DNA of 64,000 bases from Escherichia coli (GTDB taxonomy: Bacteria; Pseudomonadota; Gammaproteobacteria; Enterobacterales; Enterobacteriaceae), in NCBI RefSeq assembly GCF_024298765.1, contig NZ_CP101210.1; one strand, written 5' to 3'. The translations under genes and the position numbers were made by a program. Every line of letters starts with the position of its first letter. Position 1 is the first letter of the stretch. This document shows, piece by piece, positions 4,247-64,000 of the stretch. The notes below the pieces were generated by a model. It was not told the DNA's origin, ran no database searches, and saw only the letters and a program-made list of their open reading frames with translations.

Positions 4247-5208
4247 ATAATCCCGGCCTGATAGAAATCCTGCAGGTTAATTGCGCCGGTGAGTTTGCCG
4301 TTTTCATCCACTACCGGTGCGGCGGTGATTTTGCGTTTCATCAGGATTTCTTTGGCGTCGATGGCACGGCTTTGCGATTGCAACGTGGTGCCGCCGACCG
4401 TCATCGCTTCATTGACTGGCGTGGTGAGTGCGCCGCCGCCAACCAGCCAGCGACGTAAATCACCGTCGGTAAAGACGCCTTTCACCAGTCGTTGATCATC
4501 GCACACTGCCACCAGACCTAAACCGGTGCGGCTAAGTTCCAGCATCGCGTCCATCACGCTGGCGGTTAACGCCACCTGCGGGATGGCATCGTCACGACGC
4601 ATAAGATGATGCACTTTGTTCAGCAAGCGAGCGCCCAGTGCCCCGGCTGGGTGGGAGCGGGCAAAATCTTCTTCATTAAAACCACGCGCCTGCATGACTG
4701 CCATCGCCAGCGCGTCGCCCATCATCAGGGTATTCACGGTGCTGGAGGTCGGCGCAAGGTGCATCGGGCAGGCTTCGCGTTCTACGGAGATATCCAGCAC
4801 CGCTTTCGCCGCCAGGCCCAGCGGTGACGTCGGTTTTCCGGTCATTGCCAGCAGCGCGATAGATTTGTCTTCCAGACGCGGAATAATGAGATCCAGTTCC
4901 TTCGCGCCACCGGAATAAGAGATAAACAGCATCACATCGCGGCTTTCAATCATCCCCAGATCGCCGTGCAGTGCTTCTGCCGGATGGACAAAAAAAGCCG
5001 GTGTGCCGGTGCTGGCAAGCGTTGCGGCGATTTTCTTACCAATGTGGCCCGATTTGCCAATTCCCGAAACCACCACTTTGCCTTCGCAGTGCAGGATGAT
5101 ATTGGCGGCGCGAACGAAATCATCGCCCAGACGTTCCGGTAAATGGCTTGCTTCCTGCAACTCCAGCATTAACGTCTGACGTCCCGCGTTCAGTAGTGCT
5201 TCACTCAT
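4243..5208 (-). CDS. gutQ: Arabinose-5-phosphate isomerase GutQ (SIS + CBS domains)
   Basis: 321-aa ORF; SIS motif [13 protein letters not shown]; position at the end of the srl/gut operon. Confidence 0.9.
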
Positions 5209-16375: not shown

Positions 16376-16468
16376 GGTGAGGTGGCCGAGAGGCTGAAGG
16401 CGCTCCCCTGCTAAGGGAGTATGCGGTCAAAAGCTGCATCCGGGGTTCGAATCCCCGCCTCACCGCCA
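16376..16468 (+). tRNA. serV: tRNA-Ser (anticodon GCU)
   Basis: 93-nt sequence GGTGAGGTGGCCGAGAGG...CCGCCTCACCGCCA with long variable arm; anticodon loop CT-GCT-AA. Confidence 0.92.
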
Positions 16469-16471
16469 TTT

Positions 16472-16548
16472 GCATCCGTAGCTCAGCTGGATAGAGTACT
16501 CGGCTACGAACCGAGCGGTCGGAGGTTCGAATCCTCCCGGATGCACCA
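16472..16548 (+). tRNA. argV: tRNA-Arg (anticodon ACG), copy 1
   Basis: 77-nt GCATCCGTAGCTCAGCTGGATAGAGTACTCGGCTACGAACCGAGCGGTCGGAGGTTCGAATCCTCCCGGATGCACCA. Confidence 0.93.
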
Positions 16549-16746
16549 TATTCTACGTACCTTCAGCGATGAAGGTATGGAAGAGGTGGCGGTAATAACC
16601 GCAGGCACCAGGGAGGATAACGTTGCTTTAGCAACGGCCCGAAGGGCGAGCCGCAAGGCGAGTAATCCTCCCGGATGCACCATCTCTTACTTGATAGGGC
16701 TTTAGTAGCGGTATCAAAAAATCTGCAGTAAAGTAAGTTTCCCGAT
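16549..16746 (+). repeat. tRNA-cluster spacer repeat ending in a duplicated tRNA-Arg 3' end
   Basis: Hairpins cttcagcgatgaag and gttgctttagcaac, then cctcccggatgcacca without a preceding tRNA body; near-identical copy at 17103-17236. Confidence 0.7.
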
Positions 16747-16823
16747 GCATCCGTAGCTCAGCTGGATAGAGTACTCGGCTACGAACCGAGCGGTCGGAGG
16801 TTCGAATCCTCCCGGATGCACCA
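16747..16823 (+). tRNA. argY: tRNA-Arg (anticodon ACG), copy 2
   Basis: Identical 77-nt tRNA-Arg sequence. Confidence 0.92.
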
Positions 16824-16885
16824 TCTCTTACTTGATATGGCTTTAGTAGCGGTATCAATATCAGCAGTAAAATAAATTTTCCGAT

Positions 16886-16962
16886 GCATCCGTAGCTCAG
16901 CTGGATAGAGTACTCGGCTACGAACCGAGCGGTCGGAGGTTCGAATCCTCCCGGATGCACCA
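16886..16962 (+). tRNA. argZ: tRNA-Arg (anticodon ACG), copy 3
   Basis: Identical 77-nt tRNA-Arg sequence. Confidence 0.92.
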
Positions 16963-17025
16963 TCTCTTACTTGATATGGCCTTAGTAGCGATATCAATAT
17001 CAGCAGTAAAATAAATTTTCCCGAT

Positions 17026-17102
17026 GCATCCGTAGCTCAGCTGGATAGAGTACTCGGCTACGAACCGAGCGGTCGGAGGTTCGAATCCTCCCGGATGCAC
17101 CA
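17026..17102 (+). tRNA. argQ: tRNA-Arg (anticodon ACG), copy 4
   Basis: Identical 77-nt tRNA-Arg sequence. Confidence 0.92.
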
Positions 17103-35733: not shown

Positions 35734-36399
35734 GCTAATGCTCCTTAATAAAAGCGTAATGGGATGTGAATGGAGATGAAAGCAGTGGATCTCATTGCCA
35801 TCTGCATTTTTGCATAGCGTATATCGCTGGCTATGACTAATCAATTAGTGAAAAATTTTTATTTAATCTGTTTTTGTAGATAAAATATTCCGTAGCGGCG
35901 CGTTTTTTGCACATTGTGGATTTTTACATGCCGATATGATTTATTTTTAATTAAATCAATTGGATATGTGTTTACCTTTATTTTCACTCATGAAGGTTTG
36001 GGGGGGGGTAACGCTATAAGCGTAGAGAATTCGGTGTATGTAGTGATCGGGTCATTTTCAGCATTTTTTATGCCAGATAATGTACATTGACAGCAGAAAG
36101 CACCAGTGATAGATGTTTTCTTTTATTCTGTTGAGTTGCATTTTTATTCACTTTGGTTTTGTCGGGCTTGCGGAATTAGCGAGCAGAGAGCGCCGCTCTG
36201 TTCACCAATAACCTAAATTACTCATCAAAATGGCTAATATATAATCTTGAAATTATTCTGAGGGTTTCAGAAAATAACAGCTGAAATAATCTCGTGCAGG
36301 ACTGTAAATAGATTAAATTTTGTGGAAATATAATAAGTGATCGCTTACACTACGCGACGAAATACTTTTTTGTTTTGGCGTTAAAAGGTTTTCTTTATT

Positions 36400-57819: not shown

Positions 57820-58815
57820 GTGACCGTGAGAGCACTACTGACCCCTGAAATTGCCCCGCGTATGGGGATCGTATTGTTCAGACCAGGTTCAGAGCTGATG
57901 CCCTTGTTTATGCAGGGGCGTGTCCTGCTGGAGCCTGAGCCGGAACGTTATTCATCTTTCGCCAGTGGTGCCGTTCCGGCGGCATCACAACCGCTGGCGG
58001 ATGATCCTGCCGTTCGGGCCGTGTTCCGCAATGAGGCAGTGATCCGTCGTGCTGGTGGCGTGGAATGTCTTGAAAGCTGGTTACTTCGTGAAAAAGGCTG
58101 CCAGTGGCCTCATTCCGGCTGGCACAGCGAGAACATGACAACAATGCGACACGCTCCGGGCGCAATCCGTCTGTGCTGGCACTGCGATAACCAGCTGCGC
58201 GATCAGTTCACGGAACGGCTGGAATCAATGGCAACGGATAACTGTGCCCGCTGGGTGTTGTCTGTTGTGCGTCGGGATCTCGGTTTTGATGACAGTCATG
58301 TTGTGACAATGCCGGAACTGTGCTGGTGGCTGATTCGTAATGATCTGGCGGATGCCTTACCGGAAAGTGCAGCCCGTAAGGCACTGAGATTACCGAAGCC
58401 TGTTGTGCCGTCTGTTACCCGGGAAAGTGACCTTGTGCCTTCGGTTCCTGCCACCAGCATCATCCAGGATAAGGCGAAAAAGGTGCTGGCGCTGAAAGTG
58501 GATCCGGAGTCGCCGGAGTCTTTTATGTTACGCCCAAAACGTCGCCGCTGGGTTAATGAAAAGTACACGCGCTGGGTTAAGACACAGCCGTGTGCATGTT
58601 GTGGAAAGCCCGCTGATGATCCCCACCACCTGATAGGTCACGGTCAGGGTGGAATGGGAACAAAAGCGCATGACCTCTTTGTGTTGCCTTTGTGCAGAAA
58701 GCATCACGACGAGCTGCATGCGGATACCGTGGCATTTGAAGAGAAGTATGGCTCTCAGCTGGAGCTGATATTTCGTTTTATCGATCGTGCGCTGGCAATT
58801 GGCGTATTGGCGTAA
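57820..58815 (+). CDS. DUF968-family phage protein (YdfU-like)
   Basis: 331-aa ORF with GTG start; C-terminal Cys/His-rich region (QPCACCGKPADDPHHLIGHG ... CRKHHDELH); usual position between rusA and Q. Confidence 0.65.
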   Translation: MTVRALLTPEIAPRMGIVLFRPGSELMPLFMQGRVLLEPEPERYSSFASGAVPAASQPLADDPAVRAVFRNEAVIRRAGGVECLESWLLREKGCQWPHSGWHSENMTTMRHAPGAIRLCWHCDNQLRDQFTERLESMATDNCARWVLSVVRRDLGFDDSHVVTMPELCWWLIRNDLADALPESAARKALRLPKPVVPSVTRESDLVPSVPATSIIQDKAKKVLALKVDPESPESFMLRPKRRRWVNEKYTRWVKTQPCACCGKPADDPHHLIGHGQGGMGTKAHDLFVLPLCRKHHDELHADTVAFEEKYGSQLELIFRFIDRALAIGVLA

Positions 58816-58828
58816 GTGGAGAACGAGC

Positions 58829-59581
58829 ATGAACCTTGAAGCCTTACCAAAATATTACTCCCCAAAATCTCCAAAATTGAGCGATGACGCACCGGCGACA
58901 GGCTCTGGTGGTTTAACAATTACGGATGTAATGGCTGCGCAGGGGATGGTGCAGTCGAAAGCACCGCTTGGGTTTGCCTTATTCCTGGCAAAAGTTGGTG
59001 TTCAGGATCCTCAGTTTGCGATTGAAGGTCTGCTCAATTACGCGATGGCACTGGATAACCCGACATTGAATAAATTGAGTGAAGAAACCCGGCTACAGAT
59101 CATTCCTTACCTTGTGAATTTTGCCTTTGCTGATTATTCCAGGTCTGCGGCAAGTAAGGCTCGCTGTGAGCATTGTGCTGGTACTGGATTTCATAATGTA
59201 TTGCGCGAGGTGGTGAAACACTCCAGAAGCGGGGAATCTGTTATCAAGGAAGAGTGGGTGAAGGAACTATGTCAGCATTGTCATGGTAAGGGAGAAGTCA
59301 GCACAGCGTGCAGAGGGTGTAAGGGTAAAGGTATTGTCCTGGATGAAAAAAGAACCCGGCTTCATGGTACGCCTGTTTATAAGATTTGTGGGCGTTGCAA
59401 TGGTAACCGTTTTAGCCGTTTACCAACCACACTGGCGCGGCATCATGTCCAGAAGCTGGTACCAGACCTGACGGATTATCAGTGGTACAAAGGATATGCA
59501 GATGTCATTGATAAACTGGTTACAAAGTGCTGGCAGGAAGAAGCATATGCAGAGACACAATTGAGAAAAGTGACAAGATAA
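58829..59581 (+). CDS. Late gene antiterminator Q
   Basis: Start at MNLEALPKYY with SD ggaga; zinc-finger-like CEHCAGTG ... CQHCHGKG ... CRGCKGKG ... CGRCNG; followed by late promoter/terminator region. Confidence 0.8.
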   Translation: MNLEALPKYYSPKSPKLSDDAPATGSGGLTITDVMAAQGMVQSKAPLGFALFLAKVGVQDPQFAIEGLLNYAMALDNPTLNKLSEETRLQIIPYLVNFAFADYSRSAASKARCEHCAGTGFHNVLREVVKHSRSGESVIKEEWVKELCQHCHGKGEVSTACRGCKGKGIVLDEKRTRLHGTPVYKICGRCNGNRFSRLPTTLARHHVQKLVPDLTDYQWYKGYADVIDKLVTKCWQEEAYAETQLRKVTR

Positions 59582-59691
59582 ATGATTTTCGCCGAAGATG
59601 GCGACATGATGCTTGCATTTTTCAAAAAATCTGGTTAGGATTCTCCTAACGATGGGCTTTGTATGTCTGCCGTTAACGAAATCATAACAAA

Positions 59692-59713
59692 CCTCGCTTC
59701 GGCGGGGTTTTTG
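59692..59713 (+). terminator. tR'-like rho-independent terminator after the late promoter
   Basis: Hairpin cctcgc-ttcg-gcgggg followed by tttttgctttt. Confidence 0.7.
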
Positions 59714-59731
59714 CTTTTCTGGAGGTCAATA

Positions 59732-59989
59732 ATGCAGGGCGAAAAGCAGCAGCCATATTTTTTTAACCCTGGTATGACTGTTGAACAGCTTGAAGACTGG
59801 CTGGAGCAGCAAAAGCTTCATCTAAGCCGCTATAACCGTCTGGTAAAAGAAAAAGCAGAGCTTGAAGAACGGCTCAGTGATATTTCTGTGGAAATTGAAC
59901 GAATGTCTGCTGGTGGTTTTAACGGAAAGTTGAGTTTCCCCTGGGAGTCAAGTTCGCTTCTGAGAAATCATCAACAGGGTAGTGTTTGA
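59732..59989 (+). CDS. Hypothetical small protein (85 aa) immediately downstream of tR'
   Basis: ATG at 59732 with SD ggagg; coiled-coil-like (LEQQKLHLSRYNRLVKEKAELEERLSDISVEIERM). Confidence 0.5.
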   Translation: MQGEKQQPYFFNPGMTVEQLEDWLEQQKLHLSRYNRLVKEKAELEERLSDISVEIERMSAGGFNGKLSFPWESSSLLRNHQQGSV

Positions 59990-61337: not shown

Positions 61338-61726
61338 AGATGAGTTATTGGGCGCTCATTTTAACGTTTATTGCTTGTGTCGCTGGTGGTCTTGTCTGGT
61401 CAGCGAATCACTATCATGGAAAGTTTCTGGAGGAGCAGAAGCGTGCTGATGCTGCGGAACAGCGAGCTGATTCTACTGAGGCTATCACCGCGAATGTTCT
61501 GCGTACTATGGCAATAACGAACATCATTCAGGAGGCGAATCAACATGCAAAACAGCAGATCGCACTGGAGTCACAGAGAACCCAGGAAGATATCAAAGTG
61601 GCTGTTGCGGATGATGATTGTGCTTCACGTCCTGTGCCTGCTGCCGCTGCTGACCGGTTGCGGAAGTACGCGAACAGTTTACGTCCAGGTTCCGGTAGTT
61701 CCGTTACCAGCCAGCCTGACGGCTGA
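61334..61726 (+). CDS. Rz-like inner-membrane spanin (i-spanin)
   Basis: 130-aa ORF; N-terminal TM then coiled-coil periplasmic domain; follows the endolysin. Confidence 0.75.
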   Translation: MKMSYWALILTFIACVAGGLVWSANHYHGKFLEEQKRADAAEQRADSTEAITANVLRTMAITNIIQEANQHAKQQIALESQRTQEDIKVAVADDDCASRPVPAAAADRLRKYANSLRPGSGSSVTSQPDG

Positions 61727-61880
61727 AACCCCTCAGCCTGATTTACCTGATCATTTTACGTGGGGCTCGAGCTTAGATCTGAATGTCGCCTTGTTGTCTG
61801 CATTGGCGCAGTGTAATACCGATAAAGCTGACATCAGAAGGATTGAAGTTGAGCGTGGTCACATCATGCAAAAAAAATGA
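61611..61880 (+). CDS. Rz1-like outer-membrane lipoprotein spanin (o-spanin), overlapping Rz in another frame
   Basis: Start at MMIVLHVLCLLPLLTGCGS (lipobox LTGC); proline-rich; overlaps the Rz 3' end. Confidence 0.7.
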   Translation: MMIVLHVLCLLPLLTGCGSTRTVYVQVPVVPLPASLTAETPQPDLPDHFTWGSSLDLNVALLSALAQCNTDKADIRRIEVERGHIMQKK

Positions 61881-61972
61881 TGTTAACTTTGTTTTGTTCC
61901 TTGATTTGATATGTGATGGCCCAATAGATACAAAGCACCTGATTTTGGTGACTCTTTTAAAGGGCTTTACAC

Positions 61973-62293
61973 ATGAAAGATGGTATCTATTTTGTTGTTT
62001 TCAGAAGCAATCAACGTGATTTTGGTAATGGTACCGTAGTTGTCAAAAACAATGCAGTAAATGGCGGAGATTTTGGTTTTACGTATCAGGGAAAAATTGA
62101 CGGTAGCCAACTTATTCTGCGCGTATCGCAGCATGATTTAAATGTCACCTCGGTTTTCCCTGGGGTAAAGAACTTTGAATTGAGTCTTTCTTTGCAGGAA
62201 CGAGGACGTGATTACCTGTTAAATGGATCTGTGGTCGGAATGCCTCAGATGCAAATTTCAATTAGTGCAAAATACATTGGTGATCTGATTTAG
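61973..62293 (+). CDS. GrlR-like (lipocalin-fold) family protein, tentative
   Basis: 106-aa ORF starting MKDGIYFVVFRSN, reminiscent of GrlR-family proteins from memory; followed by terminator aaccgcctccgggcggtttttta. Confidence 0.45.
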   Translation: MKDGIYFVVFRSNQRDFGNGTVVVKNNAVNGGDFGFTYQGKIDGSQLILRVSQHDLNVTSVFPGVKNFELSLSLQERGRDYLLNGSVVGMPQMQISISAKYIGDLI

Positions 62294-62385
62294 TTTATCG
62301 AGATGATAATTGAACCGCCTCCGGGCGGTTTTTTATTGCCATTTCTATGGTCTGTTCCATCGTAATAACTTAAAGGGAAGCATTA

Positions 62386-62736
62386 ATGCCGCCACGAACC
62401 CCGAAAGCCTGCCGTGTTCGCGGCTGCCGCCATACCACTACTGACCCTTCAGGCTACTGCGAAAGCCACAAAAGCGAAGGCTGGAAGCAATACAAACCTG
62501 GACAATCCCGTCATCAGCGCGGCTACGGTTCGAAGTGGGACAGTATCCGCGCTCGTGTTCTGAAGCGTGACAAAGGCCTGTGTCAGTTATGTCTGCGTGC
62601 TGGTGTGGTGCGTGAGGCGAAAACTGTTGACCACATCATCCCTAAAGCGCATGGCGGCACTGATGCCGACTGTAATCTGCAGAGTCTGTGCTGGCCGTGT
62701 CATAAGGCGAAGACGGCCCGTGAACGGTTGAAGTGA
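62386..62736 (+). CDS. HNH endonuclease (terminase-associated)
   Basis: 116-aa ORF; zinc/HNH motifs CRVRGCRH ... CQLCLRAG ... VDHIIPKAHGGTD ... NLQSLCWPCH; directly upstream of terminase. Confidence 0.85.
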   Translation: MPPRTPKACRVRGCRHTTTDPSGYCESHKSEGWKQYKPGQSRHQRGYGSKWDSIRARVLKRDKGLCQLCLRAGVVREAKTVDHIIPKAHGGTDADCNLQSLCWPCHKAKTARERLK

Positions 62737-62861
62737 TAATGATTCTCAACTGCCTGAGGGGAGGGGCGGGTCAAATCCCTGCGGCCTGACGTCTTCCGGA
62801 CTGCCCGCCCCATCGTTTTTTTATACCCGCGAAAAATGAAATTTAACCAGGAGTGCCGCAT

Positions 62862-63356
62862 ATGGCTGGAACGGCGGGGCGTTCCGGGCGTCGCCCCAAG
62901 CCAACGGCGCGCAAGGCGCTGGCCGGAAACCCCGGCAAGCGAGCCCTGAATAAAGATGAACCTGTTTTTACGCCCATCAAAGGTGTTGAGCCACCGGAGT
63001 GGTTCGCTGAAGAAGATCTCCCTCTCGCCACGATCATGTGGCAACTGACAACCAAAGAACTCTGCGGTCAGGGCCTGCTGTGCGTGACTGACCTCGCGGT
63101 GCTTGAGCGGTGGTGCGTGGCCTATGAGTTCTGGCGACGTGCCGTGAAAAATATTGCCAGCCAGGGCAACACCATTACCGGTGCAATGGGCGGTATGGTC
63201 AAAAACCCGGAGCTGACCGCCAAGAAAGAACAGGAGTCCGAGATGAGCAGCACGGGGGCAATGCTCGGACTCGACCCCAGCAGCCGCCAGCGTCTGATTG
63301 GCCTGGCGGGGAAGAAGAAAGCCACTAACCCGTTTCTGAAAATCATCGAGTCATGA
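62862..63356 (+). CDS. Terminase small subunit (P27-like family)
   Basis: Start at [14 protein letters not shown]; typical N-terminal basic region; stop overlaps the large-subunit ATG. Confidence 0.8.
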
Positions 63357-64000
63357 GCCGGAAATCTTACCCCAACGTAAATGCTGCCAATCAGTATGCC
63401 CGGGATGTCGTGCGCGGAAAGATTGTTGCCTGCCAGTTTGTGATTCAGGCCTGCCAGCGCCATCTTGATGACCTGATGGCGGAAAAAAGTAAGTCGTTTC
63501 GTTACCGCTTCGACAAGGACCTGGCTGAACGGGCCGCGAAATTTATTCAGCTGTTGCCGCACACCAAGGGTGAGTGGGCATTCAAACGGATGCCCATCAC
63601 GCTGGAGCCGTGGCAGCTATTTGTGATCTGCTGTGCGTTTGGCTGGGTCAATAAAGGCACCCGGTTGCGCCGCTTCCGGGAGGTGTATACCGAAATCCCC
63701 CGTAAGAACGGCAAATCAGCAATCTCTGCCGGTGTTGCCCTGTATTGTTTTGCCTGTGATAACGAGTTTGGCGCGGAAGTGTATTCCGGTGCCACGACAG
63801 AGAAACAGGCGTGGGAAGTCTTTCGCCCGGCGCGACTGATGTGTAAACGCACACCCATGCTGACGGAAGCGTTCGGGATTGAGGTTAACGCCTCAAACAT
63901 GAACCGTCCGGAGGATGGCGCGCGGTTTGAACCGCTGATCGGCAACCCCGGTGATGGTTCATCACCCCACTGTGCCGTGGTTGATGAATATCACGAGCAT
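63353..64000 (+). CDS. Terminase large subunit, 5' part (truncated by window end)
   Basis: Hand-translated [29 protein letters not shown]... with Walker A-like [11 protein letters not shown]; open to the window end. Confidence 0.8.

Follow-up and report, generated by a model that had tools for sequence, protein, structure and literature searches.

A GC-rich inverted repeat between the HNH endonuclease and small terminase genes of an Escherichia coli prophage very probably belongs to a cos site of the SfI/SfV/P27 type

The GC-rich inverted repeat that is located between an HNH endonuclease gene and a small terminase gene in the 64,000-nt stretch of Escherichia coli DNA analyzed here (contig NZ_CP101210.1; referred to as the window) very probably belongs to the cos site of a lambdoid prophage of the SfV/SfI/P27 type, the packaging of which is HK97-like and HNH-dependent, a reading to which we assign a probability of about 0.9. 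The assignment is based on the identity of 10 nt of the site to the cohesive end of phage SfI, on the match to the annotated cos site of phage P27, and on the ends of phage genome records, which fall in the alignment column of position 62811. The site as such is already known, as it constitutes a further copy of the published cos of SfI, SfV, and P27, which is of the HK97-type class. The only aspect that may be undescribed is a G-rich box (G-box), which precedes the cut at a constant distance. As judged from the aligned sequences, the two arms of the inverted repeat are separate conserved sequence signals and not a conserved stem-loop.

The repeat consists of the arms GGGGCGGG (62763-62770) and CCCGCCCC (62804-62811), which form a perfect 8-bp inverted repeat, as had been noticed in the original prediction, whereby the arms are spaced by 33 nt and not by the 30 nt that were counted there for the loop. 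The T-run that had been described behind the stem is present as a T7 run at 62816-62822 and starts after the 4 nt ATCG that separate it from the 3' arm. The whole element is contained in the 125-nt gap between the HNH gene and the small-terminase gene (terS), and the Pfam assignments of both neighbors (PF01844 and PF05119, respectively) bear out the genetic location that had been proposed for it. The gene order is HNH, cos, terS, and the large-terminase gene terL (PF03354), such that cos lies between HNH and terS-terL. The window ends 1.2 kb downstream of cos and the prophage is not visible as a whole. The features of the region, all of them on the plus strand, are as follows:

62386-62736, plus strand: HNH endonuclease gene, packaging accessory nuclease and counterpart of HK97 gp74 (open reading frame; Pfam PF01844, E = 5e-15; the records of SfI, P27, and E. 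coli likewise name it an HNH endonuclease)
62758-62770, plus strand: G-rich box GGGGAGGGGCGGG, the last 8 nt of which are the 5' arm of the repeat
62771-62777, plus strand: TCAAATC motif adjoining the G-box
62778-62797, plus strand: 20-nt spacer of fixed length and poorly conserved sequence
62798-62805, plus strand: most conserved core GGACTGCC (GGACYGCC)
62802-62811, plus strand: cohesive-end sequence TGCCCGCCCC, probable cosN equivalent with a predicted 10-nt 3' overhang, the last 8 nt of which are the 3' arm of the repeat
62816-62822, plus strand: T7 run in an A/T tract to the right of the cut
62823-62851, plus strand: cosB-like block ATACCCGCGAAAAATGAAATTTAACCAGG, putative small-terminase recognition region
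62862-63356, plus strand: small terminase subunit gene of the P27 family (PF05119, E = 4e-21; so annotated in SfV, SfI, and E. coli records)
63353-64000, plus strand: start of the large terminase gene, which is cut by the window edge (PF03354 TerL_ATPase, E = 6.5e-15, and annotations)

The suggestion that the repeat could be the cos region is strongly supported by the mapped ends of phage SfI. Run-off sequencing of SfI virion DNA in comparison to the prophage had revealed a 10-nt gap, 5'-TGCCCGCCCC-3', which represents the cohesive end (PMC3636060). Positions 62802-62811 of the window are identical to this gap and comprise the 3' arm together with the two preceding bases. Furthermore, the P27 GenBank record carries a misc_feature “cos-site” with the sequence CGCCCGCCCC, which sits on the homologous 10 nt. 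In SfI, SfV, SfII, SfIV, and P27, the cos is found at the same place between the HNH and the P27-family TerS genes, and the G-box, the T-run, and a ACCCGCGAAA block are common to all of them and the window. The Shigella phage and P27 sites differ from the window by single bases in the spacer, and position 62812 is an A in the window and a G in SfI. Over the HNH-TerS region, the window shows 98-100% identity to the Shigella phages SfII, SfV, and SfIV and is closely related to SfI, ST64B, and the Stx phage P27.

The ends of phage genome records also point to this boundary. In the SfI record, the last base corresponds to 62811 and the first base to 62812, and the record of Edwardsiella phage EPP-1, which ends with TACTGCCCGCCTC and begins with CCCCAATTTTTATGACCGCG, has the same boundary (62811/62812). 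The record of Burkholderia phage phiE125 ends with GGGACCGCCCGCTTC in the alignment column of 62811. For the phiE125/phi644-2 group, ten-base 3' extensions with the right-hand sequence 5'-CGCCCGCTTC-3' have been reported (PMC2920897), and this overhang is homologous to 62802-62811. The HK97 record ends 41 nt past the T of ATCAAATC, and position 62811 is likewise located 41 nt past the T of TCAAATC (62771). The HK97 ends are 10-nt 3' overhangs (PMC9410871); within that article the overhang is given as 10 nt in the legend of Figure 1 and as 12 nt in the Discussion, and that of lambda as 10 nt. The record of Pseudomonas phage D3 stops one nucleotide before the column of 62811. Thus, the comparison with the cos sites of related HNH/P27-type phages that had been recommended with the prediction yields agreement for SfI, P27, HK97, EPP-1, and phiE125 and an offset of one nucleotide for D3, and the mapped SfI termini and related-phage ends, which could have refuted it by lying elsewhere, fall here.

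The records of SfV (U82619), SfII (KC736978), and ST64B (AY055382) start at the equivalents of 62795, 62737, and 62847, respectively, and that of SfI (JX509734) at 62812. Apparently, the first three starts were chosen by convention. Near-identical phages have been linearized at different points around the same cos, and of these only the SfI record follows the mapped end. Because of these differing starts, record starts are unreliable evidence of termini in this phage group.

Relatives of the site were collected by two routes. A DNA pattern composed of the 5' arm and TCAAATC was scanned against viral contigs and yielded 107 distinct sites. Of these, 61 are flanked by an HNH gene on the upstream side, by a Terminase_4 gene on the downstream side, or by both, and roughly another dozen resemble HK97/HK022. 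Some of these relatives possess a TerS with just 11-25% identity to that of the window. One match of the scan (L130:567-582) is a tRNA-like 3' end. The second route, which is free of DNA bias, was a scan of one genome per species with a 14-sequence alignment of HNH proteins and led to 80 loci from different Enterobacterales with HNH proteins of 55-90% identity. A G-rich box was present within 420 nt after the HNH gene in 62 of these 80 protein-chosen loci. From such loci, an alignment of 52 non-redundant regions from different species was built (A5), which is practically ungapped over about 100 nt, including the spacer.

In this alignment, the columns of the G-box (A5 columns 6-18) are 75-100% G, several of them 96-100%, and the AAA of the adjoining motif (62773-62775) is 87-100% conserved. 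Within the core, A62800, C62801, G62803, and C62804 are invariant (ACnGC). The core straddles the position at which the bottom strand would be nicked (62801/62802), and the right part of the overhang and the region of the top-strand nick are variable. On the right side of the cut, conservation within and next to the T-run exceeds 90% only at TT (62818-62819) and at A62823, and CCGC (62827-62830) inside ACCCGCGAAAAA reaches 87-98%. The site consists of three parts with fixed spacing, namely the G-box with TCAAATC (62758-62777), the core with the overhang (62798-62811), and an A/T-rich downstream block (62812-62851), which contains the T-run and ACCCGCGAAAAA. Together, the cut site, the upstream G-box, and the putatively TerS-specific downstream block constitute a rigid architecture of about 95 bp that is found in phages of Enterobacterales, Pseudomonas, and Burkholderia.

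The conservation of the sequence blocks is strong and the site is real, but the stem itself is not beyond chance. The minimum free energy fold includes the stem, with z = -0.96 as RNA against dinucleotide shuffles. As single-stranded DNA the region folds with -11.9 kcal/mol (z = -0.54), and the fold of the whole intergenic region has z = +0.23. Perfect GC-rich 8-bp inverted repeats with a loop of at most 40 nt occur four times in the 64-kb window, compared to 2.5 +/- 1.7 expected from Markov-1 simulations. Across the 52 regions, the eight pairs are formed in 67.5% of the alignment cells, compared to 69.1% with shuffled 3' letters and 73.6% with the register slid by one, and no compensatory changes for the stem were detected among these relatives. 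An RNAalifold consensus of the alignment contains just four pairs (-2.15 kcal/mol), and single-sequence folds of eight members gave z values from -1.29 to +0.29. Moreover, the partner of the G-box differs, being the cut site in some members and another C-rich stretch in others (HK97, L249, L281). The G-box variants GGGGGAGG, GGGGGTGG, and G9A co-occur with an unchanged core, and some metagenomic relatives have a G-rich core (CGGCGCGGGG), which makes the pairing impossible. Since the pairing is no better than in the shuffled and slid controls, since the partners vary, and since arm variants occur with an unchanged core, the 8-bp hairpin is not a selected structure but results incidentally, in the SfV/P27 subgroup, from the presence of a box rich in G opposite a cut site rich in C.

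These data also bear on the proposal that the element is a Rho-independent terminator, in which the stem GGGGCGGG/CCCGCCCC and the U7 tract would end transcripts that arrive from the HNH/lysis region, perhaps alongside a function of the element as cos. The resemblance to intrinsic terminators is evident, as a perfect GC-rich 8-bp inverted repeat, which is part of the minimum free energy structure, is followed by a T7 run in an intergenic region, and in a few relatives (L281, L102) the core is enclosed by a more compact hairpin of 7 bp, behind which T6-7 is found. However, the 33-nt loop exceeds the approximately 3-10 nt of such terminators, and 4 nt (ATCG) instead of 0-2 nt lie between the stem and the T-run. 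A terminator consensus scan (loops of 3-8 nt) was silent here, yet called clean terminators at 59689-59710 and 62312-62331. Neither the fold energy nor covariation lends support to the long-range helix, and the local helix around the ACCGCCG core (helix C) shows no covariation family-wide (54.1% versus 54.0% in the shuffled control); the terminator-like hairpin formed by helix C in L281 and L102 was rejected for this equality with the control. Relatives with class 1 downstream DNA keep only T4-T5, located 5-7 nt from the C-rich arm and preceded by GTCAGA, ATCGAA, and similar sequences. In addition, the site is located inside a Q-antiterminated late operon, which is read through, and late transcription must cross cos to reach the head genes. 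A terminator function therefore appears unlikely, and of the original suggestion of a terminator, the cos region, or both, the cos part was corroborated by the SfI termini, whereas neither the terminator nor the stem-loop as a functional unit held up.

It might also be considered that the inverted repeat functions as DNA, whereby a cruciform or hairpin at cos would join the G-box and the cut site and be recognized by the terminase/HNH complex. In several members (the window, P27, L228, L237, and EPP-1), pairing between the G-box and the C-rich core is indeed feasible, and the fixed spacing is kept, but a pairing frequency equal to that of the controls, the weak single-strand DNA fold, the G-box variants next to an unchanged core, the alternative partners in HK97, L249, and L281, and the G-rich core of some metagenomic relatives make this very unlikely. 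That the repeat is a chance occurrence in a decayed prophage with no present function is hardly credible, even if the repeat alone is statistically ordinary and the window does not show the whole prophage, given its near-identity to the viable phages SfI, SfII, SfIV, and SfV, the conservation of the blocks across genera, and the presence of the HNH-TerS module with intact flanking genes in 1161 of 5426 complete E. coli genomes (about one in five).

Other structural candidates for the region were not retained. No Rfam match with E <=1 was obtained within 61500-64000, and ARAGORN called no tRNA near cos. The sequence GGGTCAAATCCC (62768-62779) resembles the tRNA T-arm GGGTTCAAATCCC minus one T, a resemblance that is lost in many relatives. 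A T-arm-like reading of GGGTCAAATCCC found no support from ARAGORN or Rfam, and its pairing is gone in many variants of the type TCAAATCTCT and AAAAGTTC. A G-quadruplex was dropped as well, as no more than three G-tracts are present in the window and the box of HK97 is a plain G9 run.

Returning to the reading as cos, three sequence classes can be distinguished among the relatives in the DNA right of the cut, and these classes track the type of TerS. TerS identity is 0.69 within a downstream DNA class and 0.25 between classes, a difference to which the physical linkage of the block to terS could contribute; the HNH proteins show 0.70 within and 0.69 between the classes. In the class of the window, the block TTTTTATACCCGCGAAAAATGAAATT is near-invariant, though TerS identity goes down to 49%. 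The cosB-like block at 62823-62851 is near-invariant in 21 relatives with a TerS of 49-98% identity, and other blocks take its place in relatives with a TerS of just 23-30% identity. A pattern of this kind, which relates the downstream block to the terminase type, is already known from the cos of lambda (PMC4669245). The TerS of HK97 has its binding site, CTAACCCGATTTTTT, at 15-29 bp beyond the cut on the downstream side and reads a G and an adjacent A-tract there (PMC11331095). The HK97 site contains CCCG and an A-tract, and the window has CCCGCGAAAAATGAA at +15 to +29. By analogy, the downstream block is most likely the place where the small terminase binds and thus cosB-like, and the T-run is best assigned to the right-hand half of cos, on the side of TerS. 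The analogy to the HK97 binding site is weak because the TerS of HK97 (gp1) has no similarity to the window TerS detectable by BLASTP or Pfam and is not a member of PF05119. For the same reason, a transfer of the HK97 binding site by protein homology failed, and a search of the PDB gave no sequence relative. In class 2 relatives (L237:1277-1381, L235, L223, and others; A5 columns 49-90), which have a different TerS type, a second copy of the core ACCGCCGC is present some 22 nt beyond the first on the downstream side. The repeated core is enclosed by the 7-bp inverted repeat CTAACCT/AGGTTAG, after which come T7-8 and GGGG(N)CCCC.

During lytic growth, the site would be expected to operate as follows. 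The small terminase would bind the right-hand block, and the large terminase together with the HNH protein encoded upstream would nick the strands of the concatemer 10 nt apart at GGAC/TGCCCGCCCC/A. With the bottom strand nicked at 62801/62802 and the top strand at 62811/62812, this would yield the 3' cohesive end TGCCCGCCCC. The left, terS-proximal end would then enter the prohead and the next cos would end packaging. For HK97, it has been reported that cleavage at cos is stimulated by the HNH protein gp74 and that TerS is bound on the downstream side of the cut (PMC9410871, PMC11331095). We infer the exact nick positions in the window prophage, as well as the TerS contact and any role of the G-box.

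In HK97 (gp1 TerS, gp2 TerL, gp74 HNH), cleavage is thus HNH-assisted and TerS acts downstream of the cut, and the site in the window appears to be the counterpart of this cos. Like the overhang predicted for the window, that of HK97 is a 10-nt 3' overhang, and a G-run with ATCAAATC precedes the genome end at the same distance. The core of HK97, CCGCCGCC, is likewise C-rich, and its right flank is A/T-rich and contains CCCG and a T7 run. Unlike the window, HK97 shows no long-range complementarity of the arms, about 320 nt separate its HNH gene from the end, and the T7 run lies at +24 to +30, compared to +5 to +11 in the window. The cos of lambda (cosQ-cosN-cosB) is alike in its tripartite logic but differs by 12-nt 5' overhangs, by needing no HNH protein, and by unrelated sequences, so that a cosQ-like G-box is an analogy only.

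The G-box is located at the same distance from the genome end in HK97, P27, EPP-1, D3, and phiE125. Together with TCAAATC (62758-62777), it occurs in HK97, P27/SfV, EPP-1, Pseudomonas D3, Burkholderia phiE125, and metagenomic phages with a TerS of 11-25% identity to that of the window. Tentatively, we suggest that this element, which lies 31-44 bp upstream of the presumed bottom-strand nick, might be an undescribed, widely conserved cos sub-site of HNH-dependent 3'-overhang machines, likened to the cosQ of lambda on the basis of its position and conservation pattern. In such a role, it could present a signal, by sequence or by shape, by which the translocating TerL/HNH complex is stalled or positioned, such that cleavage downstream takes place when packaging ends. 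The published work on HK97 maps only the TerS site, which lies across the cut from the G-box (PMC11331095). A string search of the literature for the G-box motif (GGGTCAAATC and variants) gave unrelated primer matches only, and no paper in which the upstream side of an HNH-type cos was dissected was found in the searchable literature, in which subscription journals are thinly covered.

For the window, the result labels the packaging site of a common prophage module and otherwise matters little. For annotators, it means that the GC-rich hairpin and T-run at this place should not be called a terminator. The architecture of about 95 bp provides a simple rule for predicting the genome ends of HNH/cos prophages, and it suggests a termination signal that would be testable in the HK97 in vitro packaging system.

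The late operon, in which the cos is embedded, has the order Q, tR'-like terminator, holins, endolysin, spanin-like gene, GrlR-like gene, HNH, cos, and terminase genes. Behind the Q antiterminator gene (58787-59581, PF03589), positions 59689-59710 can form a strong terminator-like hairpin with a stem of 9 bp and a loop of 4 nt, which is probably the tR' of the late promoter region. An open reading frame without Pfam match (59663-59989) overlaps this hairpin. Just upstream of Q, 57820-58815 encodes a DUF968/putative HNHc_6 nuclease-like protein, a second HNH-type protein of this prophage that has no relationship to the packaging HNH. An open reading frame of 106 aa (61973-62293), which is located between the spanin-like gene and HNH, has a borderline Pfam match to GrlR, a negative regulator of type III secretion (26.7 bits versus a cutoff of 26.8). 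A promoter-like site (61966-61993) lies in front of this frame, and a clean terminator with an 8-bp stem, a 4-nt loop, and a T-run (62312-62331) lies behind it, and the GrlR-like gene looks like a moron inserted in the late operon.

Two further observations concern other parts of the window. A run of about ten G residues at 35999-36009, set in an AT-rich stretch, is, besides position 4649 and the G-box of cos, the sole strongly G-rich 13-mer in the window and could be a slippage-prone tract. A tRNA cluster at 16376-17102, in which four Arg-ACG genes come after Ser-GCT, is similar to a chromosomal operon of the serV-argV type, whereby an overlapping antisense Arg-TCG call within the cluster is probably spurious.
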